Shown here: positions 877 to 63,523 of the stretch, piece after piece
Layout of the letters: each line of letters starts with the position of its first letter
How positions within the stretch are numbered: the stretch's first letter is position 1
NCBI GenBank assembly: GCA_028687915.1
Contig: JAQTZF010000001.1
Coordinates: 866,634-930,633, forward strand
Length of the DNA: 64,000 nucleotides
Reading direction: 5' to 3'
Source: Candidatus Daviesbacteria bacterium
Lineage (GTDB): Bacteria; Patescibacteriota; Microgenomatia; Daviesbacterales; UBA10151
The notes under the pieces: generated by a model
Database searches by the model: none
Told to the model about the DNA's origin: nothing
Seen by the model: the letters and a program-made list of their open reading frames with translations, nothing else
Position numbers and translations under genes: made by a program

Positions 877-1035
877 TTACCGGGTCCATGATCTGAGCAA
901 CATCGAAAGGTCTGTAATATCTACTCTGCCGCTGCCGTTCAAATCAGCCGCACTTCCCCCTCCTTGTCCCCACATTCGAAGGAACATGGATAAGTCTGTT
1001 ACGTTAACTCTGCCATCATGGTTTATGTCTGCACT
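877..1035 (-). other. Dockerin (type I-like, two 22-aa Ca-binding repeats) coding segment at the 3' end of the 1543-aa gene
   Basis: Seen in translation: two DxNxDGRVNxTDLSMxLR repeats. Confidence 0.65.
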
Positions 1036-11500: not shown

Positions 11501-12896
11501 CTGTTCCTGTTCCCTGAGCATTAAGAACAATAACTGCTGGCTGATTAGTAGCTGGAATATCATCTAAGGCTGTTGAACCATTTCTTCTTACTTCAAGATT
11601 AACTTGTTTGTTAGCACAGTTTGTATCACCTGTAACATTTAGGCTTACTGTTAATCCAGTAGTAGTGGCTTGAGTACTCCAGGAAGCTGAGGTTAAATTA
11701 CAAGGAGCTGAAGTTGAGGAAGGTGCTTCAATAGCAGCTACTAACTTTTGCATATAGAGTAAATCACCTTTTCTATCTGGTTTATCTAAGTAGCTTTTTA
11801 GCTGAGTAGCTGAATTACCTTCAACATATGCTTTAAGCATAAAATAAGTCCAGGAAATCTCTGGTGATGCATAAGAACTTTCACTCCAGCTTATAGCAGA
11901 AGAATTTAACCAACCCATGGGCACATCAGTTAGGATCTTAGAGGCATAAGCTCCAGCTTGAGCAGCAGCATTATCTTTAAGAAAACTTCCTACTTCCCTG
12001 CTAAAGAGTAATCCTACAGGATTTCTTTGGAACATAAAAATTGGAGTAGTATAACCATAATCTAAAGGATTATCCAAATTAAAAGCATTAGGGAATTTTG
12101 TTTTAGCATTGGTCAAAAACTGATTAAAATTAACACCACTGGCAAAACCAGTTTCAGCAAAAGCTAAAGCGTCATTATAATCAGCTGTATTTCCTAAATG
12201 CTGGGCAATTCTGGCAAAACCAATAGCTCCTGATAAATCACTATATGTAGTAATACCCGCAGTCTTAAGGTTTGTATAAATAGTCCTTAAGTCATTGTAG
12301 CTGCTTGTAGCATATGCCCAATCTCCGGTGTTTTGTGAATAAATCCAAATTGCATAAAGAGCAGCTGGATTTACTCTCGGTGCTACCCAGGTATTTGAGG
12401 CAGGCGGATCTTTATGCCAATAGCTAAAATTCTCATTAGGATTGGGAATAAAATACTCTCTTCTTGCCCCAGGTAACTGAGAAATATTACCTGCTGCATT
12501 TCCATTTGGATTAGTAACTGGATAAAAAGAACTTGAATGTGGAGGATAACTGCTAATTTCATTTTTTAAATAATTGCTAACTGCAGTTTTTAAACCAGGA
12601 GATAAATAAGGATAGGCTGCACTTAGGGTATAAATTGTCTCAACTGGGGAGGAGTAAAAAATCAAAGGATTGCCTCCTAAACCTATAAAATATAGTGTTG
12701 GCGCCATATGTCCAGCACTAACCATTTCTTGAACTTTTACTTCTAATTCGCTTTGTAGATCCTGAGTATCAGCTGTAATACTTACTGGCTGAGGGATATT
12801 GTTAGTGTAATTTTCATAGGCAGCTTCAACTTTACCAATTCCAGAGAAGATAAATAGTAAGAATAAAATTCCTAGTTTTAAGAATATGTTTTTCAT
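5508..12896 (-). CDS. Giant secreted modular protein (2462 aa): duplicated [alpha-rich N-domain - two-Cys module - PQQ-like beta-propeller] architecture plus a LamG/concanavalin-like region
   Basis: ORF track. Signal peptide. Repeated 'YAIDxxxGxxxW' blades typical of PQQ-type beta-propellers at about aa 880-1180 and 2020-2300. Three copies of the ~110-aa CNLTSASW...PQYYF module. AYPYLS-containing N-domain occurs twice. Confidence 0.8.
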
Positions 12897-15800: not shown

Positions 15801-18800
15801 TGAACATTGGGAATAACTTTTCCATCATAATTAATACTATTAGCAATAATCTCATTTTTTTCCTGAATTACTAACTTAAAATAAACATTATCCTTCTCAG
15901 CTTCTTCTAAAACTTTATCAAAAGCATAGGCCATTTTTTGTTCCATATACTGATGGTGAGCCATCCAGGATTTTTCAATAACATTTGGTCCTAAACTACC
16001 ATCTGGGTTAACTTCGTTAACATCAACTCGGTCAATTTGTACAAATGCACCGCTTCCAGTTAAAGGAGTTAAATTATCAATATTCTCAATGGTTAAGTAG
16101 AAATTCAACATAAAATCACGGTTAGCATCACTGGTGAATTCTCCAGTTAAAATTGACCATTGTGGATTACCACTACCATCTTTTGGAGAGGTAGAAGCGT
16201 AATTACTAACCACATTACCAGTACCTGGATTAAAACAATATGTTGGAGGATTATCAGTTGGACCCCATAACCAAAACCCAGTCTTTGCTACGAGGCCATA
16301 AGGCTTTGTTGGATCTTTAGGAGCAGGCAAATTCTGGGGCATTAAGTATTTGATACTAACTCTATACTTAGTGTTTGGCTTGAGTGCTGGTGAATCTTTA
16401 AGCCATCCAGTAAAAATACAAGGATTCCAATATTGCTCTAGTTCCATAGAAACATCGCTTCCTGGGGCACCAGGTAACCTGGTATCAATTGAGGAAAAAG
16501 GTATATAACCCCCATACCACCCACCAGTATGAGAATTCCAGGGATTCCAAGCTGAAGAGTTAATACTCCATCCAGACAACCATACCCTAAGTAATTGAAT
16601 TCCATTTTGACCAAATTTTGGTAAGTTAGTCTTACTACTGGTAATAGGATTCTCAGAAGGTATGCTAGTATTCAGGCTTAATCCCGGGAAATATGTACCA
16701 TCCTGGTACTCAAAGTATCTTGTGTCTGTTTTGGAGACTTTAACAAATCCATGGTTATTAGGATCAGCAGCAGAAACAATAAATGTTTGGGTGGAAGAAG
16801 TGACTTTTCCACCAGCATCCTGAGCAGTTAATCTGTACTGCCAGGTACCTTCCTGAGTTGGAGAAAACCTTAATTTCCAGGAATAGTTTGTGGTTGGATA
16901 AATCCAGTCTCTGCCACCTTTAACCTGATAATCAAAGTCCTGGTAGTAGAAAGCTGGTTGAATAGAAGCTTTAGCCCAGTCAGTTTCTCCTGGAGCTAGG
17001 AACTCTCCATTAACAGTAATACCTTCTTTGGGAGTAACACCTGCAGGAGGTGTTTCATCATATGGCATCTGTAAGTTGGTAGCTACAGTATTGTTAATTT
17101 GGAAAGTAGATTCAAATTTCTCATATTTAGGTACTTGGGAATTAGTGTAAGTAGAAATATTATCTGAAATGTTACCAATCTGAGGACCACCCCCTGCTAA
17201 CCCTGTAACGGTTAACAAGTTCGCCTGAGTATCAATTGTATTTCCTCCCTCAGCACTGGCTGTAAAGTAATATTGAGGACTGGTGAAAAGAATCAAGGGA
17301 TTATATTCAGTTACCCAAGAACTGGTCCCTGTACCACTACTACTCAAAGTTATTCCCACAGGATGAATAGCAACATCATTACCTCCAGTGGTTGATAAAC
17401 CATTTCTAACAACCTTTAAGCTTACTTGTTTATTAGCACAACTACTGTTCCCTGATATTACCAAACTCACAGTACTGTTTTGAGGAGCTATTAGTGATTG
17501 ACTCCCTGGAACACTCCAGGAAGCAGATGTTAGCTGACAAGCGACAGGTGTTGGAGCAGCAGTAGGTGTTGCAGTAGGCGTTGTGGTTACAGTAGGGGTT
17601 AATGATGATTCACTCCATCCACTAATTCTTGCCATCATCACCCAAAAAGCCTGAGCTACCCTTTGTGATCCTGCAGCAGTTAGATGTCCTCCATCAGAAG
17701 AATAAGCAGGATACATAGCTTCCAGACCACCTGAGGTAATAGCATTACCTGCTGGATCATGTGATTCAATAGCAGCCAGATCAAAAAGAATTATATTGTG
17801 GGTAGCTGCATAAGTTCTTAAATTATTATTAAAAGCATCTCTTGAGGGATCACCTGAGGTCATAATGGGCATGGTCCACCAGATAAACTTTTTGGTAGGA
17901 TAGGCAGCCATTAAAGCTTCCATATGGGTTCTGTAATAATTCCAGTCAGCTCCCTGATCTATATAGCAAAACTTTTGTGAGAGAACATCCATTGTGCTTG
18001 CTTGTAGGGCTACCTGAACATCAAAATCATCCACCTTTGCCTGCCAGCCAGGATTACCTCTGGCCTGAAAAGACCAGTTGGTTCTGTTGTATTTGGTGTT
18101 TTGAGCAGTGAGAGCATTTAAACCATCATTAATATTTGATCCCACTGAGGCATGTCTGAACATCATTCTTAAAGCTGAGGCTTGAGTAATTACAGTATCA
18201 GGCAAGTTATTAAAACTTGTAACATTTTGATGATTAATAATAAATTTTGTACTTGAAACTGTTGTTGGGGTAGGAGTGGCAGTTGGAGTAGGAGTAGATG
18301 TGGGGGTTGCAGTTGCCCGTGGGCTAATAGTTGCAGTGGGTGTGGTTACAGGAGCAGCAAAAACCTCCAAAGATGCTAACTGATAATTTGATTGGCTGGA
18401 ACCTGTATTTGCCCTTATTAATAAATAACGTCCTGAACCTAAAATAGATGAGTTAAAATCTCCATTAATCCCGCTTCTTACCACTGTAAAACCTACACCA
18501 TCATCAGATAATTCAATATTATAATTTGTGGCTAGATTATTACCCCATTTTACTGTAACCGTCCCAATTGAAACAGTCGAACCCAAATCAATACCCAACC
18601 ATTGAGCCCCCCCAGAACCAGAAGTCCAAAAAGTAGACACATTCCCGTCAACTGCATTAACAGGACTAGATCCGGCTGCAGTGGAAGAAACACTAATAAT
18701 AGGCTTATTTAAAGCTAAATCCCCGGCAATTTGGGCATTAGCATTTTGAGTAGACTTAATAATTCCAAATAAAGCAACTAGAGTAAAGAGGATAATACTA

Positions 18801-18850
18801 AAACTTAAAAAAAATTTTCTGATAACCAAGAATTTGTTTTTTATCTTCAT
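12893..18850 (-). CDS. Giant secreted modular protein (1985 aa): F5/8 type C (discoidin) domain, SGNH-like region, two-Cys modules x2, GH5-like (cellulase family A) domain, C-terminal PQQ-like beta-propeller
   Basis: ORF track. N-terminal discoidin-like segment (NAVDGNVSTFWTSG...). 'HSWELNNEGDP' and 'RGETGFV' resemble the GH5 acid/base NEP and nucleophile motifs (assignment by motif only). YAV/YAI propeller blades at the C-terminus. ATGA start/stop overlap with 5508..12896. Confidence 0.75.
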   Translation of the reverse strand: MKIKNKFLVIRKFFLSFSIILFTLVALFGIIKSTQNANAQIAGDLALNKPIISVSSTAAGSSPVNAVDGNVSTFWTSGSGGAQWLGIDLGSTVSIGTVTVKWGNNLATNYNIELSDDGVGFTVVRSGINGDFNSSILGSGRYLLIRANTGSSQSNYQLASLEVFAAPVTTPTATISPRATATPTSTPTPTATPTPTTVSSTKFIINHQNVTSFNNLPDTVITQASALRMMFRHASVGSNINDGLNALTAQNTKYNRTNWSFQARGNPGWQAKVDDFDVQVALQASTMDVLSQKFCYIDQGADWNYYRTHMEALMAAYPTKKFIWWTMPIMTSGDPSRDAFNNNLRTYAATHNIILFDLAAIESHDPAGNAITSGGLEAMYPAYSSDGGHLTAAGSQRVAQAFWVMMARISGWSESSLTPTVTTTPTATPTAAPTPVACQLTSASWSVPGSQSLIAPQNSTVSLVISGNSSCANKQVSLKVVRNGLSTTGGNDVAIHPVGITLSSSGTGTSSWVTEYNPLILFTSPQYYFTASAEGGNTIDTQANLLTVTGLAGGGPQIGNISDNISTYTNSQVPKYEKFESTFQINNTVATNLQMPYDETPPAGVTPKEGITVNGEFLAPGETDWAKASIQPAFYYQDFDYQVKGGRDWIYPTTNYSWKLRFSPTQEGTWQYRLTAQDAGGKVTSSTQTFIVSAADPNNHGFVKVSKTDTRYFEYQDGTYFPGLSLNTSIPSENPITSSKTNLPKFGQNGIQLLRVWLSGWSINSSAWNPWNSHTGGWYGGYIPFSSIDTRLPGAPGSDVSMELEQYWNPCIFTGWLKDSPALKPNTKYRVSIKYLMPQNLPAPKDPTKPYGLVAKTGFWLWGPTDNPPTYCFNPGTGNVVSNYASTSPKDGSGNPQWSILTGEFTSDANRDFMLNFYLTIENIDNLTPLTGSGAFVQIDRVDVNEVNPDGSLGPNVIEKSWMAHHQYMEQKMAYAFDKVLEEAEKDNVYFKLVIQEKNEIIANSINYDGKVIPNVQECWDSDPKNDPAECPFMGNKWYYGNWGQPTKVYWLQQAWWRYLQARWGYSPNVHSWELNNEGDPYNGLHYTLTNNLGKYMHQFGPNSHLVTTSNWHSFPTTGFWGNNNYSDVDYADVHQYILQGTNLDLRVDKPTNGAGTNIGTIADYYDSAEEANKISQQIGAKQPFGVNKPVMRGETGFVDSNWAATTLFNNDTQGIWLHKYIWGGINSGGLIESYWYGGEHIYPAGRDLRPQYGIYYNFIKDIPLSNGNYQDIGATSNNTNIRAWGQKDTVNGKAHVWIDNKTHTWGNVVNNPTAIAVQSGTVTIPGMPVGSYTVTWVDTYTGTTLKTDTSIVDQTGNINLTVLNLDKDIAVKVENTTLSLVCTLASAAWNTQTTTTGTIVNLNVTGDANCANKQVNFEVRRNGSTIDDIQANTQPAAIALNAQSQGSGSWVAEFNPLRLFGVPLGDPQYYFRATTTGGNTIESNPRLLTVTIGTGGTPTPTLTPTPGASSTDWPQVQKDANHSGYVAQTVLPPTSSSAVLWKRDKPFPVSSRVQPVIAQNLVFLPSNNGSLYALSTTDGHTVWSYKTGSGLVNSAAYDNGRVFFGSTDHNIYAVNANDGSLAWKVLTGSTVKTAPVIANGIVYIGSSDGNMYAINGSTGAQVWKHDIGAPIYDTAAIDNNRVFFGGMDSVGYALNISDGSEAWHIKIPGQGFRDRWTVAGNGKVLFTPMLYGEKGASLTEGTYLFNGTANPLIYNQPWSVQRSMILSYLQAHPYNQPVHVVNQNTGAELPAPILYGSGGSQAPHAQPVLLPNGNADVIYRRSFGELSTSGATTYSALYVGELTSADNDILPIDTCVPGGGTRADTCGNYKAPLISDESSALMRSGDIVYVSSGRGDIGLDTINKTNLPFSSYNTTSGGIFGNPPIVLYPGHTEWICINPSGGIDTPFSEVNSDCNDIKRPTPIVGDTFYILYYSTIMAVKGTIR

Positions 18851-24084: not shown

Positions 24085-24131
24085 ACATTTATTATAAACA
24101 TAAAGACTACTTGAATTATAGTTGTCTTCTA

Positions 24132-32146: not shown

Positions 32147-32232
32147 TGGTGCCGAAGGAGGGAGTTGAACCCTCAAGGCCTTGCGGCCAGTAGTTTTTGA
32201 GACTACCGCGTATACCATTCCGCCACTTCGGC
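32147..32232 (-). tRNA. tRNA-Leu (anticodon CAA), class II with long variable arm, CCA encoded
   Basis: Minus-strand read GCCGAAGTGGCGGAATGGTATACGCGGTAGTCTCAAAAACTACTGGCCGCAAGGCCTTGAGGGTTCAACTCCCTCCTTCGGCACCA. Acceptor 7 bp. Anticodon stem GTAGT/ACTAC with loop CTCAAAA. Variable arm GGCC/GGCC. T-arm GAGGG-TTCAACT-CCCTC. Confidence 0.85.
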
Positions 32233-32336
32233 AAGCTCAGTGCTGTAGCACTCAACATAAGGCAAATTATACCTAATTCCGGCATGTTTGTCATGGTAGC
32301 TTGATCTAAGTATCCTATAGGTATATAATTTCGCCT

Positions 32337-38317: not shown

Positions 38318-38364
38318 TAGGCTTTTTTGCTCTAATACTAGTTTTTATGAGATAATAACCTAAT

Positions 38365-41094: not shown

Positions 41095-41178
41095 CTCCAC
41101 TGTCATCCTGAACAGAGTGAAGGATCTAGATTCTTCTGGTCCGCTGGACCATCAGAATGACAATAGTATAATTAACCA

Positions 41179-44975: not shown

Positions 44976-46084
44976 ACCCTCACGCTTTTTTTATTTGTTT
45001 TTACGGTCACCAGTATGGAATTTATTCCAGAAGGCATCTTTGATGAAACTTTATCAATTGCTTCCACCATTCCCTGATCCCCAAAACTGTCCGGACCAAT
45101 GATTCTAACCCTTTGGTTTAACTGAAGTTTCATAACCTTCAATCCTGGTCCTAAATCCTCAGTAGGATTTTTCGCTATTTTTGTCTTGCGTATGTAGATC
45201 ATACAATTCTGCGAAGCACTTGGCAAGATTAAACGATTTAAGTTGCCATCTAAAATAGAAAAATTACCGTGATTTTTTTGTAAAAGAGAGAAGATATCAT
45301 CACCCATATGTGCAGAACCAAAGCCTTCTGTAATTAATATGCTAAAACCAATATCTGCCCAATGACGGTTATAGATATTCCATCCTCCGGCTAAGGATTT
45401 ATAGTTTTTAGCATTAATGCCACCGGAAATTATACCAGCTATTCCATACTCTGCTGCTTTTTCCAGGCCATCTGCAAAAACAATCTCTCCTCCTACAATA
45501 ATCTGGCCTTTCATGGTTTGCTCCAGTTGCCTTGAACCAATCAAAACTTCTTTTGATCCAATTACATTTAATACCCCTTCTCTTTCTTTACCTGACCCAA
45601 GCATCCCGTAAATAAAACTTGCCATGGTACGGATAGTAATCACCCCTTTTGTTTCATCAACATCATCTATAATTCCCCACACACCACAAGCCAACTTTAT
45701 GGTTTTGGGGAATAATTTAATCCTTAAAGTTCCATTTTTCTCATCATAATAATCTAATATTCCGTCATCAGGTGATAGTAATATTTTTTCTCCCAAACCA
45801 AGAACCCCTTTTTTGGAAGCCAAAAGTTCACCTGTAAAAATATTACTGCCTAAAGGACGGCTAAGAAATTTAATGCCATCACTACCACTTATACCCAATT
45901 CTTTTGCTAAATTAACTACTCTAAATCCGGCACTGGTTTTACCTTCAGCTAAGATTGCATTTGGAGCTACTTCATCTCCAACTTTTACGTTCACTTTAGT
46001 AATAGCTGAAGGTAAAGTCCGTTTGATATGAGTTATCTGATCTGTAACTATTCTGGTACGTGCATTAAGTAAAATTTGATCCAT
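44945..46084 (-). CDS. Hypothetical protein
   Basis: ORF track; no motif recognised. Confidence 0.5.
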   Translation of the reverse strand: MDQILLNARTRIVTDQITHIKRTLPSAITKVNVKVGDEVAPNAILAEGKTSAGFRVVNLAKELGISGSDGIKFLSRPLGSNIFTGELLASKKGVLGLGEKILLSPDDGILDYYDEKNGTLRIKLFPKTIKLACGVWGIIDDVDETKGVITIRTMASFIYGMLGSGKEREGVLNVIGSKEVLIGSRQLEQTMKGQIIVGGEIVFADGLEKAAEYGIAGIISGGINAKNYKSLAGGWNIYNRHWADIGFSILITEGFGSAHMGDDIFSLLQKNHGNFSILDGNLNRLILPSASQNCMIYIRKTKIAKNPTEDLGPGLKVMKLQLNQRVRIIGPDSFGDQGMVEAIDKVSSKMPSGINSILVTVKTNKKSVRVCYQNLEILI

Positions 46085-52993: not shown

Positions 52994-54100
52994 TTAACTA
53001 CTCACTAAAAACTCAACAACATCACCATCCTGCATAATATATTCCTTACCTTCTGTTCTAAGCCATCCTTTTGTTTTAGCAACAGATAAAGATCCTGCTT
53101 CTATTAATTTTTCATAAGGGATGACTTGAGCCCTGATAAAACCTTTTTCAAAATCAGTGTGAATTACTCCAGCTGCTTGTGGTGCTTTACTTCCTCGCTT
53201 TATAGTCCAAGCCCTAACTTCTTTTTTTCCCTGGGTAAGAAAAGATATTAATCCTAATAGCTCATATGCTTTTACAATTAATCTTTCCAACCCTGTTTGT
53301 TCTATCCCCAACTCATGTAAATATTCCTTTTTTTCTTCATCACTATAATCTGCCAGTTCTTCTTCCAACTTTGCACAAATCACTACTGCATTGTCATTCT
53401 GAGTGATTAGCGAAGAATCTCGCAGCTTTTCTGCATACTCATTTTCTGAAACATTGTAAACATATAACAAAGGTTTAATTGTGAGCAATGGCAAAGTTCT
53501 AAACCATTCTTTCAGCCTTTCATCTCCTATATGATAATTACCAAGTATTTTCCCCTCTCCTAAGTCATCCTGAACTTGTTTCAGGATCTGAAGTTTCTCA
53601 GATTCCAATTGATCCTTAGCTACTTTTGCCTGCTTTTCCTGAGCAGCAACTAATTTTTCCACCACAGATAAATCTGATAAACCTAGCTCTGTTTCTATTA
53701 TTAATTTATCTGCATCAGGACTTTCTGATCCTTCCCTAATCACATTTTCATCATTAAAATCTCTAACTACCTCTATAATTGCATCAACTTCCCTAATATG
53801 TGATAAAAACTGGTTCCCTAAACCTGCACCAGTTGCAGCACCTTTAACTAAACCTGCAATATCTACAAACTCAACAACCGCTGGAACAATTGGAGGCAAA
53901 CCTTCCATTTTTTCTTCTTTGCTGACTAGCTGAGCAAGCTGATCTAGCCGACTGTCCGGCACCGAAACCACCCCAACATTTGGTTCAATGGTAGCAAAAG
54001 GATAATTTGCAGATAAAGCCACCCTCTTTTTCAAAAGGGCATTAAAAAGGGTACTCTTCCCCACATTTGGCAAACCAACAATCCCAACTTTCAAACTCAT
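52994..54100 (-). CDS. ychF: Ribosome-binding ATPase YchF (Obg-family GTPase)
   Basis: 'GIVGLPNVGKSTLFNAL' G1 motif; C-terminal TGS domain. Confidence 0.9.
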   Translation of the reverse strand: MSLKVGIVGLPNVGKSTLFNALLKKRVALSANYPFATIEPNVGVVSVPDSRLDQLAQLVSKEEKMEGLPPIVPAVVEFVDIAGLVKGAATGAGLGNQFLSHIREVDAIIEVVRDFNDENVIREGSESPDADKLIIETELGLSDLSVVEKLVAAQEKQAKVAKDQLESEKLQILKQVQDDLGEGKILGNYHIGDERLKEWFRTLPLLTIKPLLYVYNVSENEYAEKLRDSSLITQNDNAVVICAKLEEELADYSDEEKKEYLHELGIEQTGLERLIVKAYELLGLISFLTQGKKEVRAWTIKRGSKAPQAAGVIHTDFEKGFIRAQVIPYEKLIEAGSLSVAKTKGWLRTEGKEYIMQDGDVVEFLVSS

Positions 54101-54230
54101 GAGGGAATTATATCCTAAATTAAAAAATTAATGTAATAAGTTATTTTCACACTATAGGCGTACCTGTTAATGTACCTTTAGGGATGTGACAAAAGAAGCA
54201 AAACAGACAATTTTAATCTTGATCTAGCCG

Positions 54231-55739
54231 TCATTTAAGAAAAAATTTATTAAAACCTTGAATATATTTTAATAATCTTTTTTTACTCCTTGGTTTCACT
54301 ATACCTTCTTTAAAATCGCCTTTAATATATTTAATCTCTGCTATACCATCCTTAATTTCTACATTTTCTTTATCTCTAATATCTTCTTTAATATTTTTCC
54401 TAAGATAAAATTCCTTACCATATTCCTCAACCAACTCATCATAATACTTATCGCCATCGCCTCCTTTATCAAAAAATGCTCCTGCCTTTATTCCTAGATG
54501 TTTTGATATTGCTAAGTAGCTTCGTATTTTTGAAAAACCACCTACCCCATAACCGTAAAATTCAAAATTAAGAGGAATTCTTTCCTCTGTGCATAATTTC
54601 TCTAAAAGAGATTTATCCTCTTGCCCTTCGACAAATACTACTTTATTTGCAAAGAAATATTCTTTAGCCACTACATCTAGCTGATAAGGTTTCTTCCAAT
54701 CTTCATTTATAATTGTTTTAAGAGGCTCAAAATCTCTATTTAGATTAGCTAAACTTACTTGTCCAGATGAATCTTTAAATACCCGTGCTATATTCGCCCC
54801 GTTTTTTAAATCTTCCCAATTTACAAAATAAGGAGAATGGGTTGCTATAATAATCTGCATTTCTTTGGATTTCTCTGAAAGAAAATTAGCAAGTTTCTTT
54901 TGAATTTGCGGGTGCAATCCTAATTCAGGTTCATCAATCAGGACAATATGATCAGAAGAATTTATAAAAAAGATACTTAATATCTTAATTAAATTAATTA
55001 CTCCCCCACCCAAATAACTCCCTCTGTGCTGTATTTTATTTTTGGTTTTATATGTAAAAATATATTTATCTCTAGATTTTCTTGATATTGTCCATGAATA
55101 AAAATGAGGTATAAAACCTCTAACAGCCTTATTAAAGGCATCTCTTGTTTCTTTTTGCTCATATATAGCAGCCAATATTTTTCCAAATTCGTCATTTAAA
55201 ATTGAAGAAGCATACGATCCTCTATCAGCTTTGTATATTCTTTCTGTAACCTCATAATGATAATTTTTATCTTTTACATCCTCATCATATAATTCAAATT
55301 CATCTTCCCATATTCTTCTAGATGAAAGATACCTTATATGGTACGGACTTACAGAAAATAAGGTGTTATCAACGGTCTCCTTTACTCCCCACTTATTTCT
55401 TTTTTTATAAATCCAATCAAAAGAGTCTCCCTTACAATCTTTAAGGCATATCCGCGTTAATTCGTTATGGTGTTTTTCATCTGTTTCTAAGGTTCCATAC
55501 CTCTCTTCAAAATTTGCTAATGCAGTGAGAATAGTAGTCTTTCCAGAATTATTCTCACCTATAATAATAGTTAAACCACTCCCTAATGTGCCATTAGGAT
55601 GAGCAAACTCTACTACTTGTTCTGATAAAAAACCTCTAAAATAAGCTATGGAGAGTGCCTCTAAAAAGTTATGCTCCTCGTGTATTTTTTGATCCAGCAT
55701 GTTGCTCATTTTCAAGAAAATTTTACCATATCTCTTCAA
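54231..55739 (-). CDS. OLD-family ATP-dependent nuclease (ABC-type ATPase + Toprim), standalone (class 1-like)
   Basis: Walker A 'GENNSGKTT'. 'LIDEPELGLHPQ' (Walker B / D-loop). 'IATHSPYFV' H-loop. C-terminal 'VVFVEGQEDK' and 'DKGGDGD' resemble the Toprim E and DxD motifs. Confidence 0.65.
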   Translation of the reverse strand: MKRYGKIFLKMSNMLDQKIHEEHNFLEALSIAYFRGFLSEQVVEFAHPNGTLGSGLTIIIGENNSGKTTILTALANFEERYGTLETDEKHHNELTRICLKDCKGDSFDWIYKKRNKWGVKETVDNTLFSVSPYHIRYLSSRRIWEDEFELYDEDVKDKNYHYEVTERIYKADRGSYASSILNDEFGKILAAIYEQKETRDAFNKAVRGFIPHFYSWTISRKSRDKYIFTYKTKNKIQHRGSYLGGGVINLIKILSIFFINSSDHIVLIDEPELGLHPQIQKKLANFLSEKSKEMQIIIATHSPYFVNWEDLKNGANIARVFKDSSGQVSLANLNRDFEPLKTIINEDWKKPYQLDVVAKEYFFANKVVFVEGQEDKSLLEKLCTEERIPLNFEFYGYGVGGFSKIRSYLAISKHLGIKAGAFFDKGGDGDKYYDELVEEYGKEFYLRKNIKEDIRDKENVEIKDGIAEIKYIKGDFKEGIVKPRSKKRLLKYIQGFNKFFLK

Positions 55740-55943: not shown

Positions 55944-56267
55944 TTATGATTTATTCATAATGTCGCTATTAGTTTCAATCTGATATTTAGCTCTCTCGCC
56001 AATATCATTTCCTCCTTCAAAATAACCTTCTTTATATCCTTCTCTCTTAATTAAATTATAAATGGAAACAAGACCAACGAGAAAAGCGCTGCCACTCAAC
56101 CAAGAAAACTTTGTGATTATATCTCCGATAAATAAGATTAAAGCTCCCAAAAAAATAATTATTAGAATGTAATCTGAAAAGAAAAAGTATGTCTTTTTTC
56201 TAAACTTAAAATCACTTTCTAACTGTTTCCTAAATTCAGAATGTGAAGTCATAGTTAAATTATACAA
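55944..56267 (-). CDS. Small two-TM membrane protein
   Basis: ORF track; hydrophobic. Confidence 0.45.
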   Translation of the reverse strand: MYNLTMTSHSEFRKQLESDFKFRKKTYFFFSDYILIIIFLGALILFIGDIITKFSWLSGSAFLVGLVSIYNLIKREGYKEGYFEGGNDIGERAKYQIETNSDIMNKS

Positions 56268-56292
56268 TTAAATACTACGTCTTCTTGAGAAT

Positions 56293-56970
56293 TTAATCTA
56301 GTTTTGTTAAAAACTTTTCAATTTCTTTCATCACAATATTAGTTTCTTTTTCTGATTTCCTAAAATTATGATCCATGTTGGGCTGTCTAACTACATGAGG
56401 ATTATTTGCGTTATTCACTACCCTTTCAGTCTCACTTGGCGGCACATCTTTATCATCCAGTGCTATAAAAATCATAAGGGGTTTGTGAATATCCTTTACT
56501 TCTTCTACTGCTGAATATTGCATTCCATCAATCGCAAAAGTATCTGGGATATCAAAGGCCCTAAGCTTTTCTGGATTATCTGGCAAATCCCTGTCTGAAT
56601 GTCTAAATTCCTTACCTTGCCAATTTAAAGATGCATCTATTCTGTCAGCTGCCGGACAAAGTGCAACTATTTTAGTTACCTCTTTCATTCTATTTCCCAC
56701 AATTATTGCAACATATGCACCTAAGCTGTGACCAATTAATATAATTTCCTCTGGATTTTTACTTGAATAAAATTCAACCAAATCTGAAACTTGTTTAATA
56801 TAGCTGGTAATTGTGTAATTATTAACATCCCCTGTCTTCCAAAGAGAACAAGGATCTATTCTTTCTACTGTGTATCCTAGCTCTTCAAGCTTTTTTGCAA
56901 AAACCTTCATGTGTAGATACTCAGGTGAATCTAAATAACCAGGTAGTAATAAAGCAACTTTCAAAGACAT
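56293..56970 (-). CDS. Alpha/beta-hydrolase (esterase/lipase-like)
   Basis: Nucleophile elbow 'LIGHSLGAY'. Begins MSLKV with a 5' module copied from ychF. Confidence 0.7.
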   Translation of the reverse strand: MSLKVALLLPGYLDSPEYLHMKVFAKKLEELGYTVERIDPCSLWKTGDVNNYTITSYIKQVSDLVEFYSSKNPEEIILIGHSLGAYVAIIVGNRMKEVTKIVALCPAADRIDASLNWQGKEFRHSDRDLPDNPEKLRAFDIPDTFAIDGMQYSAVEEVKDIHKPLMIFIALDDKDVPPSETERVVNNANNPHVVRQPNMDHNFRKSEKETNIVMKEIEKFLTKLD

Positions 56971-57053
56971 GAGGAAATTATAGGATTTTTAGTCAATTTA
57001 ATCCAGGGATTAACTTTCTTGCTAGAAGCTTTTAAGGCTTTTTAGTTTCTTTT

Positions 57054-57650
57054 TCAAAAAAGAGATTGAAATACTCTACTTATTAAGGACTTTTTGGGGG
57101 CAACTGCTATCGCTTCTACCATATTACGGGTAAAAACCAAACGCTCCATTTCATCTGGCATAAATGATCGGGCATCAATAATTTTTGAACGTCCTTCGTT
57201 ACCAATTACTATAAACTTCTCCACAACAGAACTAAAAGAATAATCTAACGGAGAAGCACCACTTAAAAATCTTGCTATAATCTTGGGGCTATCTGTTTGT
57301 TCTGATTGAAAATTAAAGCTGACCACTCCCCCTTGAGACTCCCGACTCCTTGTAGTATAAACTTTAAGAAGATCATCTGGAGCAAGTTGAATCTCCCCTT
57401 TGGCCAAAGCATCCCTTATCTGAGCTGCAGCTTTTGGATTAGTGATTTCAAAAGGACCAGAATGGTCATACCACACCACATCATTTAACAGAGATCTCAC
57501 CTTTTCTCTTTCGCTATCAAGACAATTTTTTCTGGCTGCTTTTTCTTCTTCAGTTTTACGCTTGATAACAGCTAATTGTGCTCCTGCTTCTTCCGCAGTT
57601 AAAATTTGATCCTCTGTATATCTCTCTTTCATGAAAGTATTATAAGACAA
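57054..57650 (-). CDS. Hypothetical protein
   Basis: ORF track. Confidence 0.5.
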   Translation of the reverse strand: MSYNTFMKERYTEDQILTAEEAGAQLAVIKRKTEEEKAARKNCLDSEREKVRSLLNDVVWYDHSGPFEITNPKAAAQIRDALAKGEIQLAPDDLLKVYTTRSRESQGGVVSFNFQSEQTDSPKIIARFLSGASPLDYSFSSVVEKFIVIGNEGRSKIIDARSFMPDEMERLVFTRNMVEAIAVAPKKSLISRVFQSLF

Positions 57651-57711
57651 CTTCTAAATAAATCAACAAATAGTTTTTAACTTTCTTGCCAAAGGTCAAA
57701 ATTCTAGGAAC

Positions 57712-58695
57712 TTAATCGTATACAGATGCAGGAACACTATTAAGCTCTCCTCTGGTATACCCTAATTGGTAGCCCATTATATGGCTAAGCATTTGTAAGC
57801 GAGCATAGCTAGACAAGTCTTCTGCTTTTGAAGCGCCTTTAGCAAAATTTAAAACTGCTTCAGCATGAGATGTAGCCAGAGATCTAGCCATATCAAACGA
57901 GGCTTCTAATGCCTGAGCAGGACTCCAACCCTTCATAGAGGTTAAATCAACTTCAGTAGGATAATTCAATTCTAGTAAACTTCCAACCTGACCTTTATAA
58001 AGTCTATTATCCACCTCACCTACTTTAGAGGCAAAAATAAAAGGAGATCCCTCTCTAAGGGCATAGCGGTGATGCACCCTACTTTCTTGATATTTACCTA
58101 ATTCGCCAGTAATTACAATTATTGTTTGTTTTGCCTCATCTATAATATTGACATCCCCATCAACAAATATAATTCCACTTCCAGTTGTTTCTATTTTTTT
58201 TACATCACCTTCTACAAAGACAGATCCTCCCCTTAAGCCACTGATCTTGTCTACATTACCCCTGAAAACCAATCGTCCATCAGAAAGGCTTTGTCCAATC
58301 CTGGTTTCATAAAATGAAGGGCCAATCCCAGGGTCTTTTCTCACTCTTTTTTGGGTTTCAATTTTAACTTGTTCAGGGTCTCTGAGATCCACCAGTTCCA
58401 AATGATCACCATCTTTTGCCAACATATTTGCTAGACCACTTGCAAGATACTCAAAATGCCATGATTGAATTCTGGCTGGACCTGGCCTAAGACAATCAGC
58501 TATTATTTCTTTGTGATTTGGATCCTTTTTGAATGTATCTGCTAAAGCCTGTACACCATGTTGGAGTGCTCTTTCATACGCACCCCAGCCCACTAAACTG
58601 GCATTTAAAGCTGAAAGGTAAAAACTTTCATCGCGGGAAGTAAACTTAGCATAATCTGGGGCTTTTGGTTTCCTACCATCAATTTCAATTATCAT
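57712..58695 (-). CDS. Hypothetical protein with internal short Gly/Asp-Val repeats (VFRGNVDKISG / VFVEGDVKKIET / IFVDGDVNIID)
   Basis: ORF track. TTGACT-17-TAAATT promoter-like element upstream. Confidence 0.5.
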   Translation of the reverse strand: MIIEIDGRKPKAPDYAKFTSRDESFYLSALNASLVGWGAYERALQHGVQALADTFKKDPNHKEIIADCLRPGPARIQSWHFEYLASGLANMLAKDGDHLELVDLRDPEQVKIETQKRVRKDPGIGPSFYETRIGQSLSDGRLVFRGNVDKISGLRGGSVFVEGDVKKIETTGSGIIFVDGDVNIIDEAKQTIIVITGELGKYQESRVHHRYALREGSPFIFASKVGEVDNRLYKGQVGSLLELNYPTEVDLTSMKGWSPAQALEASFDMARSLATSHAEAVLNFAKGASKAEDLSSYARLQMLSHIMGYQLGYTRGELNSVPASVYD

Positions 58696-58801
58696 AAGAT
58701 ATTGGGCAAGAGTATGCTTAATTTAATAGTATTTACTAAAGAAGTCAAGAGATTAAAATCATAGAGCTTTTTGGGGAATCTAATCCAGGGATATTAACTG
58801 A

Positions 58802-59287
58802 TTAAGACATGGATTCTTGTGGATCAAGCTTTTCCAACATTGCTTGGATTTTTCTGGCTGCGGAATCATTTGGCCCCCGAAAAAGTTTAGCTCCTCCGGA
58901 AACTGCAAATCTTTTATTCCAATAGCTAAAAGCGTTTTGAACCTTCCCCAAGACAAACCTGGCCTCTTCCTCATCACCCAAAGCTAACCTAAAATCACCA
59001 GGAAAATTATCTTTATTGGCTATAAATTTCCAATGGTAACCACCCCTATCAAACTCAAATTCATATTGATCTTTGCAATCCTCAGGCACTTCTTCTAATT
59101 TCTCTTTTAATTCAGGAGTTGTCCTCAATGTTTCTCTCACCCTCCAATAATACCCTGCTGTAATACTATCAATGGCTGGTAATTGTTTCTCCTGCCACCT
59201 CCTAACAACCTCTAAAACCATATCTTGCTCAAAACCAAAGACTTGCTCTACTTTATCTTCATCAGGTCTATCTTTTTCAGGTGACAT
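58802..59287 (-). CDS. Hypothetical protein
   Basis: ORF track. Confidence 0.5.
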   Translation of the reverse strand: MSPEKDRPDEDKVEQVFGFEQDMVLEVVRRWQEKQLPAIDSITAGYYWRVRETLRTTPELKEKLEEVPEDCKDQYEFEFDRGGYHWKFIANKDNFPGDFRLALGDEEEARFVLGKVQNAFSYWNKRFAVSGGAKLFRGPNDSAARKIQAMLEKLDPQESMS

Positions 59288-59337
59288 TTTAAAATTTTAA
59301 GTCTTTTGGGGAATTTAATCCAGCAGGTTATATCTTA

Positions 59338-60168
59338 TTAAAACGGTATTATGATAGGAAAATAACCATCGGAATAGTTTGGATAACTCCAATAAGTACT
59401 ATCTCCTGAACTCATTCTTTTACCAGTTCCTTCTTTTATTAATTCGATAATTTTTTCCCTCGATAAGACTTTTGTTTTATCAACAGTACCAAGCATTACT
59501 GTTTTTCCTTTAACATCTTCTTCTTCAGCTATTTTTCTTAGCTGAGGTTCTGTTAATAAAATTTGATTATCTTTCATTGGACCTTCTTCAACTTTAACCA
59601 TTAGTCTTGGAATATCGTGTTGACCATAAACTCCTTTTCTTCTACCAGAAATAACTGAAACTTTTGTCCACAACGCATTAGTGGTCACAACATAACCTTC
59701 GTCTTCGAATTGACCCAATTCAACCCTCCATCCCTCTCCCTCAGCAACATCAAAACAAATTCCTTTTTTCATTTCTCCTAAATAAGCTGCCAATGTTTTT
59801 CCGACAAAAGGATGATCAAGAATCTTCTTTTCCAACTGAGCATACTTTTCATCTTCTTGAGGTGTACCAGGAACCCATCTAAAAAAATCTTTACATCCAA
59901 TAAAACGTTCGAAAGAATCTTGAAATAAAAGGCCGTCATATCGACCCATCTGCATAACGTTGATATCGCCTCTTTCATAGTATTTTCCACCAGTTTCTTT
60001 TTTGTCTCCATATATACTTAATACCTGAGCCACATTTGGTGTATGAAAAGTAATTACGTCTGAATAACCGTGCTGTCCTTCGAATATTGTAAATGTATAA
60101 GGTGTTTCTATTATTTCTTGCTTTGATTTTGCCAGAAGATGGGGACGGTATATATGTTCAATTGCCAT
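59338..60168 (-). CDS. Hypothetical protein
   Basis: ORF track. Confidence 0.5.
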   Translation of the reverse strand: MAIEHIYRPHLLAKSKQEIIETPYTFTIFEGQHGYSDVITFHTPNVAQVLSIYGDKKETGGKYYERGDINVMQMGRYDGLLFQDSFERFIGCKDFFRWVPGTPQEDEKYAQLEKKILDHPFVGKTLAAYLGEMKKGICFDVAEGEGWRVELGQFEDEGYVVTTNALWTKVSVISGRRKGVYGQHDIPRLMVKVEEGPMKDNQILLTEPQLRKIAEEEDVKGKTVMLGTVDKTKVLSREKIIELIKEGTGKRMSSGDSTYWSYPNYSDGYFPIIIPF

Positions 60169-60456
60169 AGACGTAACAGATTATAGGATTAGTGTCCTAT
60201 ATTGTCAATTTTTTACTAAAATTCTGTAGTCAGCCACAATTTATTTATGATCTCCTCCATAATAACTATCAGATACAGTGTATGCTTCATCTTCAAACTT
60301 ATTTTTTCTATACCCATTTTTTAAAAGTTCATACAGATATAGAAATGGGTAAATTACAGGATATTTCTCGCATTGAAAGCAGCGCGTTAAAAAATCGCAG
60401 CGAGGTTATCAGCCATTACTATTTTAATGTTTTGGTTTATATGTTATAAATAATTA

Positions 60457-61293
60457 ATGCCCAAAGAAAAAGGATCTGTCCACATTTTAGTCTTAGCACT
60501 TCTGGCTTTGGGAACACTTGGCCTTATAGGTTCTTCCAGCATTACCACTACACAAAAGTTTTCTGATTCTTCTCAGGTATTGGGAGAAAATGAATCTATT
60601 CAAAAAGCAGCAGAACGGGCAAAAGAAGAAGCTCAAAAAGTGGCTGAACAACAAAAAGAAAATAATCAGGCAAGTTTTCAATCCGAAAGGAATAAACAGG
60701 AAACAGAAATTCAAACCTCAAACGGTCAAAAAATAAAGACTAAAGTAGAAGATAATGGTTCAGTAAAAGTGGAAATTGAACAGGGTAAACAGAAACTAAA
60801 ATTTCAGGCAGAACAGAAAAAGTCTGAGCTTGAGATTGAAGATGAAGAATCCACTGATTCAGCTGATGAAGATTTAAAAGAAGTCAGGTCTATCTCCAGC
60901 TTTCCCCTAAAAATTAGTACCAGTACAGGCCAACTGATAATGACCAAAAATGGGGTTGAAAGAGTTTTGACTGTTTTACCGGCAAAAGCTATTCAAAATA
61001 TGTTAAGAGCTCACCTTAAAAATGGTTTAGGACCCAAATTCTTTGAAGCCACACCTTCCAGTGAACTTATCTCCACTGCATCTGCTGAAATAACAGTCTT
61101 AAATAATCAAATTTCACTTGAGGAAGAAAATGGCCAGGCTGTTTATAAAATTCCAATGAAAAAACATCTTAAATTACTAGGTATAATTCCTGTTACTACA
61201 GATCTAACCAGTTTTGTCTCAGCTGAAACAGGTTCAGTAATCAAAGACCAGGAATCACTTTTATCCAGATTTCTGGGCCTACTTTCCCGATAG
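60457..61293 (+). CDS. Secreted coiled-coil/charged-repeat protein
   Basis: Signal peptide 'VHILVLALLALGTLGLIGS', then a K/E/Q-rich region. Confidence 0.55.
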   Translation: MPKEKGSVHILVLALLALGTLGLIGSSSITTTQKFSDSSQVLGENESIQKAAERAKEEAQKVAEQQKENNQASFQSERNKQETEIQTSNGQKIKTKVEDNGSVKVEIEQGKQKLKFQAEQKKSELEIEDEESTDSADEDLKEVRSISSFPLKISTSTGQLIMTKNGVERVLTVLPAKAIQNMLRAHLKNGLGPKFFEATPSSELISTASAEITVLNNQISLEEENGQAVYKIPMKKHLKLLGIIPVTTDLTSFVSAETGSVIKDQESLLSRFLGLLSR

Positions 61294-61296
61294 TCC

Positions 61297-62004
61297 TTAA
61301 AAAAGCTGGCCCTGAACAGCAAAGTCATCTGGATTAGATGTAATAATCTCTTTTCTGGTAATTTCTAACTTCCCATTTTTTCTTAACGGATAAGCAATAG
61401 TCACATGATTCCCCTGTATTTCACCATAATGTTCAAAATAATGAACTTCTCCTAAATGAACAGCTAAAGGAATATCTGGATGATGTCTGATAAAATCTGC
61501 TGCATTTGTAATATTAGCTCTTAAAGCTATCAGCTCTTCTAATTCCTCTGAGGTTAAATCTCTATTTAATATAAACCTTGATGTTTCCTGCCTTAAACGT
61601 TTTTCTTTCTCCGGATCTGTAAAAATATGGACTAATGCTTCTTCATTATGTGCTTTGTCATACTTTTCAAAATCTGAAAATACCCTCCATCCAGGACTTT
61701 TTTCTTTAATTAAATCTACGGTTACCGCCCTGCCCAAATCCCATGAATGAATCGCATAACCTTCAGATCCATCATATACCAATAAATCTCCGGCCAAAAA
61801 TCTAATGTAACCGCCATCGACTCTTGTTAGATCTTCATCTTTAAAACGTTTAATATCCTCATGTATACCATGCCTGTTTGCCACATCACTATGATATGTG
61901 GATCCTAATCTTTCTCCTGGTTGTGTAACATACAGACTGTTATCAAGACGAACAAACTTCACTTGATATACCCGCTCTGCTTCTGGTCCGTTATAAATTG
62001 CCAT
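61297..62004 (-). CDS. Hypothetical protein
   Basis: ORF track. Confidence 0.5.
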   Translation of the reverse strand: MAIYNGPEAERVYQVKFVRLDNSLYVTQPGERLGSTYHSDVANRHGIHEDIKRFKDEDLTRVDGGYIRFLAGDLLVYDGSEGYAIHSWDLGRAVTVDLIKEKSPGWRVFSDFEKYDKAHNEEALVHIFTDPEKEKRLRQETSRFILNRDLTSEELEELIALRANITNAADFIRHHPDIPLAVHLGEVHYFEHYGEIQGNHVTIAYPLRKNGKLEITRKEIITSNPDDFAVQGQLF

Positions 62005-62064
62005 TTTGGGGATTATATCTGATCAAATCCCAAAATTCTAGTTAGGGGAGATTAATCCATTATT

Positions 62065-62235
62065 TTAAAGTTTTAATAACTCTAAAGCTTTATAAAGTAC
62101 CACACCAGGCCAAAAGAGAGCTTTAATAATTCCAAGTATTCCTTCCTGAAAATTTGCAGCATGTTGAAGAAAATATACTAAAGCTCCTATTACACCAATT
62201 CCATATATAGCACCAGAACCAGCATTGTTTTTCAT
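62065..62235 (-). CDS. Unlisted small hydrophobic protein (56 aa: MKNNAGSGAIYGIGVIGALVYFLQHAANFQEGILGIIKALFWPGVVLYKALELLKL)
   Basis: Not in the ORF track. Strong RBS GAGGGGGGTGATAAT upstream of the ATG (RC of 62236..62252). Flanked by copies of the stop-adjacent motif. Confidence 0.45.
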   Translation of the reverse strand: MKNNAGSGAIYGIGVIGALVYFLQHAANFQEGILGIIKALFWPGVVLYKALELLKL

Positions 62236-62296
62236 ATTATCACCCCCCTCAATAAAATTTTAAAACTTTTCTAAAATTTAATCCAGAGGATTATCC

Positions 62297-63523
62297 TTAC
62301 CGACCCCCAGGTGGAGTAAATTTGGAACATTCATCTTTGTGTTGATCGCAATATTTATCACATTCTGCCTGAGACTTACATCCTCCAGGCCCTACTGCTC
62401 CTTCTGGCATTGGCCCACGATCACCACCGCCACGGTCATTTACCCGCTCTGATGAACCCCCAGGGCTTTCAGCTCTTATCCCAAAAAAGCTCAGAATCAT
62501 ACTAATTAATTTTTGGAAAAAGTTTCTGTCATCCTTTATTTCAGAATTTCTATCCCCGCTCCCTAAACCGCCCGCTTCTCCTTTATTATAATTTGGCTGA
62601 CCTCTAACTTCTGTTTGAACCTGTTTGCCAATTTTGGCCTCAAATTTTTGGGCATAATCAACCAAAGTCTTCATGGATTCCTTGGAACACCCTCCACCAC
62701 CTTGTTTGCCAGATTCTGTGATAGTTTTTTCCATACCCTGGTGTGTTTTTTCAAATACTTCACAATTTGTTGTTTTGGTATTGTAAATAGAAACTCTTTT
62801 GAGGTTTTTTAGGTTGTTAAGACAGGATAGATCTCCTGTAATATCAGGGTTTCCCGGATATTCATCTGCTATCCCCAATTCCTGCAGATTAGTTAAATTC
62901 TTAAGTGCACAAATATCTCCTTTAACATAAGTGCCACTCAAATAAAGAGCTTTTAAGTTTGGCATGTTGGCAAAAACACTAATATCTCCTGAAATATTTG
63001 TATGAGTCATAGCAAAATTTTCCAACTTAGTCAGATTTTTTAAACAAGCAATATCACCGGTAATTTTGGGATCAAAAGCAAATTTAATAATTCTAAGCTT
63101 AGTTGCATTAGCCAAAGAACAGATATCACCACCGACGTCTGGATTTGAATAAGGAGTCAGTACTTCAAGATTTATGAGGTTCTTTAAGTTTTCTATATCA
63201 CCCTTTACAACTCTGTCTGTGGAATCTAGATACTGTAAACAAGTCATATCTTTAAGTTGAGACATATCTTTAAGTAAGTCTATATTAGTAAGCTGCTGAA
63301 AAGTCTCATTAGGATAATACCCCTGATATGTTTTATTAGGATTAGTCCAGGTTGTTAAAGAGCCGGAAGAACAAGGCCCTATTTTTTCTCCTAAAACATT
63401 TTGAAGTTTGGAAGTTGGCAAAGATTGCTGTTGGGGAATACTTATCCCAATAGAAATAAAAAGGCTAAGCAGGATAGTAATAGCTATTACAATCAAAAGG
63501 TGAGCAGAGCCTTTTTCCCTCAT
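62297..63523 (-). CDS. Secreted leucine-rich-repeat-like protein with Cys-rich C-terminus
   Basis: Repeats of 'NLxxLxxLxxxxTxIxGDIxxLxNLTxL'. Signal peptide. Confidence 0.6.
   Translation of the reverse strand: MREKGSAHLLIVIAITILLSLFISIGISIPQQQSLPTSKLQNVLGEKIGPCSSGSLTTWTNPNKTYQGYYPNETFQQLTNIDLLKDMSQLKDMTCLQYLDSTDRVVKGDIENLKNLINLEVLTPYSNPDVGGDICSLANATKLRIIKFAFDPKITGDIACLKNLTKLENFAMTHTNISGDISVFANMPNLKALYLSGTYVKGDICALKNLTNLQELGIADEYPGNPDITGDLSCLNNLKNLKRVSIYNTKTTNCEVFEKTHQGMEKTITESGKQGGGGCSKESMKTLVDYAQKFEAKIGKQVQTEVRGQPNYNKGEAGGLGSGDRNSEIKDDRNFFQKLISMILSFFGIRAESPGGSSERVNDRGGGDRGPMPEGAVGPGGCKSQAECDKYCDQHKDECSKFTPPGGR

Follow-up and report, generated by a model that had tools for sequence, protein, structure and literature searches.

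What does a short sequence do that recurs beside the stop codons of adjacent, unrelated genes in the chromosome of an uncultured bacterium? The question was raised by 64,000 nucleotides of Candidatus Daviesbacteria bacterium DNA (GenBank assembly GCA_028687915.1, contig JAQTZF010000001.1, positions 866,634 to 930,633; this whole stretch is the window, and its positions are counted from its first letter), in which a sequence-only reading had noticed a conserved element at five gene junctions. The window is low-GC (35.8%) chromosome with dnaB, hisS, a release-factor gene, ychF, and the S6-SSB-S18 genes, and the element, here named X, lies in an island of accessory genes upstream of ychF. The answer to which the evidence points, and to which we give an even chance of being right, is that X is the −35 box plus spacer half of a lineage-specific promoter cassette, the copies of which also serve as joints for the shuffling of gene modules.

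A conserved 20-mer confined to one island

The core of the element, CTGGATTARATT, was present in four exact copies in the window, all on the minus strand and within 5.3 kb (56995-57006, 58777-58788, 59312-59323, and 62275-62286). With up to 4 mismatches to the extended 20-mer consensus, CTGGATTAAATTCCCCAAAA, which we call X, five matches were obtained in the window, all on the minus strand and between 56.3 and 62.3 kb; composition-preserving block shuffles gave ~1.2 matches to the 20-mer even at up to 5 mismatches. For a 21-mer at up to 3 mismatches, there were 2 window matches versus 0 in 100 shuffles. The consensus itself is X3 (59304-59323). The other copies, likewise on the minus strand, are X2 (CTGGATTAGATTCCCCAAAA, 58769-58788), 13 nt past the stop of a 161-aa gene; X1 (CTGGATTAAATTGACTAAAA, 56987-57006), in which GACT replaces the CCCC tail; X5 (CTGGATTAAATTTTAGAAAA, 62267-62286), 10 nt past the stop of a 408-aa leucine-rich repeat gene and with TTAG at the tail; X6 (CTAGATTAAATTCTCAAGAA, 56282-56301), which overlaps the stop codon (56293-56295) of a 225-aa hydrolase gene; and X4 (ATGGATTAATCTCCCCTAAC, 62041-62060), which has 5/20 mismatches, is at chance level by sequence alone, and has position and strand only in its favor. 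The repeat first noticed at five sites was thus real, with four exact cores, but its fifth copy (X4) is degenerate, and the full CCCC(AAAAG) tail ascribed to the repeat is present in two window copies only. X6 had been overlooked; nor are the junctions consecutive, since those at 57651-57711, 60169-60456, and 61293-61297 carry no copy. An X-like sequence with an insertion (GGATTAAATTATTCCCCAAAAC, 45702-45723) within a conserved 379-aa gene is probably a chance match (nhmmer E = 0.16). TGGATTA, a heptamer, occurs more often in the window than expected (33 versus ~17), and many of the surplus copies, unrelated to X, fall within three adjacent very large minus-strand genes (877-18850), the products of which (1543, 2462, and 1985 aa) carry PQQ/beta-propeller, F5/8 type C, and dockerin domains.

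The comparison was extended to 35 copies from the window, related genomes, and metagenome contigs (here given L numbers); metagenome loci were chosen by the exact 20-mer, and genes in related loci were called as simple longest open reading frames (ORFs). The conserved block over the 35 copies is CTGGATTAAATT-CCCC-AAAA-(G). Scanning metagenome contigs with the exact 20-mer yielded 10 loci, 8 of them real arrays, among which L132 has ~10 copies in 6 kb and L131 has 6. Matches in L124 and L133 were discarded as chance because they lie within phosphoenolpyruvate synthase and sucrose-synthase-like genes, the opposite strand encoding FGEFNP. Among the matches listed from species-representative genomes scanned with a degenerate pattern, there were only single ones, except in a Microgenomates genome (L027; 3 copies in 900 bp), and almost all of these single matches were T-rich variants in unrelated lineages, e.g., SAR11 and SAR86. 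A phage origin was rejected: the viral-contig scan gave 40 single T-rich matches and no arrays, and the serine recombinase elements at ychF described below are without X. An origin of X from a tRNA gene or its attachment site was rejected as well, as X shows no such resemblance and no tRNA gene adjoins the island (the only one is at 32150-32232).

X was confined to the island in the 64-kb window and in contigs of 192 and 115 kb, and it is patchy in the clade: a single copy was present in L178 and no copy in L179, and L180 and L181 have neither X nor the island, although ychF synteny is common to all of these. Between genomes with saturated synonymous divergence, X is 19-20/20 identical and the adjacent bases are unalignable. 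These observations bear on whether X is a selfish or neutral dispersed repeat, spread by gene conversion or module duplication and without function. Its limitation to one island and one subclade would fit, as would a duplicated module that takes X along (L132 1552-1855 = 5839-6148), but near-identity amid unalignable neighbors and the nonrandom spacing to −10 boxes and start codons make this very unlikely. REP/BIME, Correia/NEMIS, and BOX elements and DNA uptake sequences are palindromic or have inverted termini and occur genome-wide on both strands. X resembles them in being short, conserved, and intergenic, and some of them (Correia elements) carry promoter elements, but X is asymmetric and unstructured; its copies are only in direct orientation, on one strand per array, and in one island, unlike those of REP elements or miniature inverted-repeat transposable elements. 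The earlier suggestion of a miniature repeat element therefore fits loosely, as a dispersed junction repeat, and fails on the lack of terminal inverted repeats and the restriction to one island.

Spacing of X to −10 boxes and start codons

A TAnnnT box was found 16 to 18 nt past TGGATT in 19/35 copies, compared with 12% of background intergenic positions (binomial P = 2.4e-9); the window copies with such a box are X1, X2, X3, X5, and X6. In the logo of the 35 copies, T was conserved at +29 to +31 (23-27/35) and A at +25 (20/35), which corresponds to a TAAAAT box 17 nt past TGGATT. The distance from the start of X to the ATG was exactly 36 nt in four cases involving three unrelated genes (window 59323, window 57006 and its L027 orthologue, and L126 890), and in X1, X3, L027, and L126 the −10 box lies 6 nt from the ATG. 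On the minus strand of the window, X1 is arranged as TGGATT-N17-TATAAT (56977-56982)-N6-ATG (56970) before the 225-aa alpha/beta hydrolase gene, and the stretch from X to the ATG is nearly identical in the L027 member of this hydrolase pair. X is likewise retained upstream of the 161/164-aa gene in both the window and L002, despite a different core promoter, so that orthologous promoters keep X. X3 is arranged as TGGATT-N17-TAAAAT (59294-59299)-N6-ATG (59287), a predicted leaderless promoter (class I) of the 161-aa gene, and X5 as TGGATT-N17-TAAAAT (62257-62262), followed by a GAGGGGGG ribosome-binding site and the ATG (62235) of a 56-aa membrane protein gene. Downstream of X2 there is a TATGAT at 18-nt spacing (58758-58763), and a canonical promoter distinct from X2, TTGACT-N17-TAAATT (58720-58748), lies between it and the 327-aa gene (ATG at 58695). 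Downstream of X6 there is a TAGTAT at 17-nt spacing (56272-56277) and then TATAAT (56259-56264)-N6-ATG (56252).

Housekeeping genes of the window (ychF, the release-factor gene, hisS, and others) share the TATAAT-N6-8-ATG layout, and since their −35 boxes include TTGATC, TTGATT, and TGGACC, TGGATT is plausible as a −35 hexamer; it differs by a single base from TTGATT, the box upstream of the 198-aa gene (57666-57639). In many housekeeping genes, a TATAAT-like box lies 6 to 8 nt before the start and a Shine-Dalgarno sequence is lacking (e.g., 54100-54120 [ychF], 41150-41178, 38340-38364, 32310-32336, and 24085-24105), and a few, such as the gene starting at 62235, have a strong GAGGGGGG site. 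Judged from these layouts, leaderless mRNAs appear to be common in this genome. We infer promoter activity for X from these spacings and layouts, together with the copies in divergent intergenic regions and the composite in L178 (both described below): TGGATT would be the −35 hexamer and AAATTCCCCAAAAGnnn the conserved 17-nt spacer, to be followed in the full cassette by a TAAAAT or TATAAT −10 box and, 6 to 8 nt further, by the start codon. RNA polymerase would then start at or beside the ATG and produce a leaderless mRNA, the usual arrangement in this genome. Sigma-70-type promoters of leaderless mRNAs have been described in Actinobacteria, Deinococcus, and others. The X cassette is like these in its −35-like hexamer, 17-nt spacer, TAnnnT −10 box, and start codon 6 to 8 nt downstream, whereas in ordinary promoters the spacer and the surroundings of the −35 box are unconserved, and such promoters are neither limited to one island nor placed between convergent genes. 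A sigma-54 (−24/−12) promoter was rejected: X has the TGG but no TTGC element, and the spacing is 2 nt off.

Several observations weigh against this interpretation. No recognizable −10 box at the right spacing was found in 16/35 copies, TGGATT matches TTGACA at 3/6 positions, and the X sites escaped a generic sigma-70 scan. Four copies have a complete TTGACA-N17-TAxxxT promoter 29 to 40 nt downstream, so that X is not the −35 box there. About six copies precede the 3' end of a convergent gene (L131 3770 and 1322, L132 2670, L126 64, L002 10663, and others), where a promoter would give antisense transcription only. The window yielded no candidate for a regulator or sigma factor that binds X. 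As for the joint function, a sequence of 20 bp is short as a substrate of RecA-type recombination. The apparent conservation of positions 13 to 20 is inflated because metagenome loci were selected by the exact 20-mer, although extra copies found in these loci via the 12-mer alone still have CCCC/AAAA; and the island restriction of X rests on long contigs (64, 115, and 192 kb), not on whole genomes.

A second conserved intergenic module, Y, was observed, which reads (C)TAGAATTTTAA-N6-GCAAGA-TATAAT-N6-8-ATG, i.e., TAGAAT-N17-TATAAT. In the window, it lies at 62002-62040 on the minus strand (TAGAAT [62035-62040]-N17-TATAAT [62012-62017]-N7-ATG [62004]) as the putative leaderless promoter of the 235-aa gene, and a degenerate Y-like module without X (TAGAATTTTGACCTTTGGCAAGAAAGTTA, 57678-57706, minus strand) is located at the junction of the 327-aa and 198-aa genes. 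Y recurs upstream of unrelated genes in several genomes (L002 9966, L027 4579, L126 1388, L128 2010, L131 2834 and 3800, and L132 1866, 3954, and 4008). It follows X in some places, precedes it in others (in which case the transcript would begin with the first bases of X), and elsewhere stands by itself.

X is more than a −35 box, as the 20-mer is kept at 68% orthologue identity, upstream of independent promoters, and between convergent genes. As its 20 bases are conserved beyond the needs of a −35 box and are kept where a second complete promoter lies downstream, X is probably also read by a further sequence-specific protein, either a regulator or a specialized sigma factor. Alternatively, X would not itself be the −35 box but the operator of an island-specific repressor, silencer, or activator that co-regulates the accessory genes, overlapping, preceding, or following different core promoters. 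All 20 bp are indeed kept between genomes whose orthologues are only 68% identical and whose flanks are unalignable; X is retained with class I, Y-module, or canonical TTGACA core promoters, at distances to the promoter that vary from 29 to 40 nt. Moreover, inspection of the sequence shows GGATTAAATTCC to be an imperfect 12-bp palindrome. However, no regulator gene was consistently linked to the arrays, convergent-gene copies would regulate nothing obvious, and the over-representation of −10 boxes at precisely 17 nt favors TGGATT itself as the −35 box. A longer palindromic operator, TAATCC-N2-3-GGATTA, was rejected, as this dyad is found in X1 and X5 only and is absent from the copies of other genomes. 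We regard a pure operator as unlikely, if far from negligible. Among the three functions first offered for the motif (a processing or termination signal, a protein-binding site, or a miniature repeat), protein binding or regulation came nearest to the evidence, given the −35-like hexamer with a correctly spaced −10 box and the fixed 36 nt to several leaderless starts.

X and the ends of upstream genes

The closeness of the motif to stop codons, to which attention had first been drawn, is real. Among 22 copies with a co-oriented upstream gene, 15 sit −9 to +14 nt from its stop, and four overlap it; the distances between the upstream stop and the C of CTGG at the sites first noticed (10, 4, 14, 13, and 47 nt) are roughly those reported. 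This position could point to a 3'-end signal of the upstream transcript (for termination, processing, or a roadblock), the possibility listed first in the sequence-only reading, the more so as convergent-gene copies still hug the stop of the co-oriented gene and no hairpin terminators are present at these junctions. Six copies, though, follow a divergent gene and have no upstream stop on their own strand (L002 9942, L027 4611, L126 890, L131 700 and 2107, and L132 3318); no copy is flanked by opposite-strand genes on both sides.

X is also unstructured, as the sequence-only reading had held: the X-bearing spacers of the window folded no better than shuffles (z = +0.07 and +0.16), a terminator scan found no GC-rich hairpin with a U tract (Rho-independent terminator) at the X junctions of the window, and Rfam 15 gave no relevant match in the window, L001, L002, or L027. 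Where a canonical terminator does occur, in L178, a perfect hairpin with a T tract comes first, and X-N12-TAAAAT begins immediately after it. Housekeeping genes with ordinary promoters likewise show gaps of only 39 to 55 nt after the preceding stop, so that closeness to stops is expected from compaction for any promoter. Both strands of X contain TAA, and ORFs that enter from either side terminate within X. The nearness of X to stop codons is thus accounted for by intergenic DNA trimmed down to the promoter and by ORFs that run into the TAA of X on both strands, and a 3'-end signal is, in our assessment, highly improbable.

X at module boundaries

Every X copy of the window lies in a variable accessory-gene island on the minus strand (55944-63523) of ten unrelated genes, one of them on the opposite strand, most of which had no Pfam match. 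All-against-all BLASTP of the ten island proteins returned nothing at an E value of <0.01; a paralogous gene family and duplicated untranslated regions were rejected on this result, and the hypothetical genes are not the family that they were first taken for. The island is located upstream of an OLD-family nuclease gene (54231-55739; AAA_15/AAA_21 ATPase plus TOPRIM), which separates it from ychF (52994-54100), and occupies the syntenic position upstream of ychF-S6-SSB-S18 in L002 and L132 as well as in the window, the genes that it holds being completely different among the three. Related islands carry DCD, NYN, Schlafen-AlbA2, Fic, HigBA-like, MazE-like, and DUF6941 genes. With this cargo (DCD, NYN, Schlafen-AlbA2, Fic, and toxin-antitoxin genes) and the OLD nuclease gene, the locus looks like a defense/accessory island.

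All X copies of an array are on one strand, whatever the orientation of the intervening genes; opposite-strand genes are bracketed by X and never have X on their own strand. The same genes are flanked by X on both sides while their neighbors differ between genomes, and in four pairs of loci the homology breaks fall at X. The hydrolase module (window 56293-57006 = L027 3050-3763) begins at the first base of X, and the 161-aa module (window 58769-59299 = L002 9989-10520) extends as far as the final A of the downstream X copy. A duplicated 88/90-aa module (L132 1552-1855 = 5839-6148) ends after the 12-mer, and an opposite-strand 278-aa module is shared with L131 (L131 2853-3735 = window 60413-61295). 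The 161-aa protein is, by its database record, a hypothetical protein of a Daviesbacteria metagenome-assembled genome, encoded on a contig of 1.1 Mb, and its sole homologue found (68% identity) is encoded in another Daviesbacteria genome, L002, among different neighbors (Fic, DUF6941, DUF4926, and MazE genes), with X upstream and again 5 nt past the stop. Exact-protein look-ups of window genes for other contexts found only contigs of the same organism.

ORF-less, hairpin-rich modules of ~130 to 190 nt flanked by X copies were also observed. ORF-less modules are located at L002 9154-9345, 10501-10682, and 3834-3883, L027 3752-3947, L125 900-1122, and L127 1330-1422, with a remnant at window 60364-60412; the L027 module folds with a z score of −5.2. 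They had no Rfam match; small RNAs, terminator modules, and empty cassettes are all conceivable. In L132 (6137/6162), two X copies are only 13 nt apart, as at an "empty" junction. Same-organism short-read contigs of the source groundwater sample (SRR22315507; Logan; ends of L001 and L174, start of L182) stop exactly after the 12-mer of X1, and L182 resumes 120 nt past this break, inside the hydrolase gene (window 56874-56995). The break would fit population sequence heterogeneity at that joint; simple strain single-nucleotide polymorphisms could equally explain it.

A role as module joint is the best-supported addition to the promoter role. The 20-mers share one orientation and sit at most of the boundaries between modules in the hypervariable island; recombination between copies would then insert, delete, or swap modules. 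If X were instead the crossover core at which a site-specific system captures cassettes, circular modules with one X would integrate at a chromosomal X through a recombinase encoded elsewhere, giving an integron-like X-module-X-module array. The one-way arrays that bracket opposite-strand genes, the same genes between X copies in different neighborhoods, the X-flanked ORF-less modules (L002 9154-9345 and 10501-10682; L027 3947-3752), the "empty" junction of L132, the fixed island site with variable content, and the source-sample contig end at X1 would all be in keeping with this. Nevertheless, no tyrosine or serine recombinase was found in or beside the arrays examined, and there was no Phage_integrase match among the scanned window ORFs or the island genes of L002, L027, and L132; X is without the inverted-arm architecture of known core sites, whole spacers being only 50 nt; and about half of the copies carry a correctly spaced −10 box, needless for a pure recombination site. 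We consider such a site decidedly unlikely.

Genes for large serine recombinases (~560 aa) were present in three related genomes (L175 8380-10059, L176 1180-2886, and L177 8440-10116), where they overlap the annotated start of ychF by 23 to 116 nt (59 nt in L175) and are accompanied by HTH_17 genes and, in L175, also by a terminase-like (GpA_ATPase) gene. By this overlap, the 5' end of ychF looks like the integration site of a prophage-like element. The elements in these three genomes are without X, which counts against a site-specific cassette system built on X. A Logan contig of the source sample ends ~60 nt inside ychF (window about 54041-54100).

Integrons offer a comparison for such arrays. 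Their attC sites are imperfect inverted repeats of 57 to 141 bp with the R' core GTTRRRY, recombined as folded single strands by IntI, and clusters of attC sites lacking integrase are known as CALINs. Like these, X forms, at one fixed place in the chromosome, a co-oriented array of sites between accessory genes that are unrelated and mostly point the same way, with ORFs that end in or beside the site, ORF-less cassettes, and toxin-antitoxin or defense-like cargo. Unlike them, X is 20 bp long and unstructured, has no intI gene, and belongs to modules that carry their own promoters. The whole X3 spacer is 50 nt, with no significant fold and no inverted repeat conserved across copies, and no GTTRRRY core was present at or beside X in the logo of the 35 copies. 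It would be rather unlikely, though conceivable, that X is the crossover core of an unrecognized integron-like system of cassette capture in bacteria of the candidate phyla radiation (CPR), in which an unstructured 20-bp site also supplies the cassette promoter and the recombinase is encoded elsewhere or replaced by host machinery.

The closest analogue of a promoter cassette that doubles as a joint is the PeSL (promoter-early stem-loop) cassette of T4-type phages, which is located in their hyperplastic regions (Arbiol et al. 2010, PMC2839356; Comeau et al. 2014, PMC4122927). PeSLs consist of a sigma-70-like promoter and a stem-loop terminator, mini-circles were shown experimentally, and recombination between the conserved promoter/terminator motifs was proposed to shuffle ORFs (PMC2839356; PMC4122927). 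X is likewise a short, conserved, putatively promoter-bearing motif at the junctions of small, unrelated, nonessential genes in hypervariable regions, and it lies at the breakpoints of indels and replacements between relatives. It differs in belonging to a bacterial (CPR) chromosome, in having no stem-loop except in the L178 composite, and in lacking a −10 box in half of its copies; its promoter activity and recombination are deduced from sequence, whereas mini-circles were demonstrated for PeSLs.

CPR bacteria have tiny genomes with few recognizable regulators, and to our knowledge almost no promoters have been mapped experimentally in them. X, nearly invariant across species, is a concrete candidate promoter/operator for this uncultured lineage and a candidate mechanism for the turnover of defense-like and accessory genes in streamlined genomes. 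If the joints do recombine, the idea of a mobile regulatory cassette would extend from T4-like phages to cellular chromosomes.

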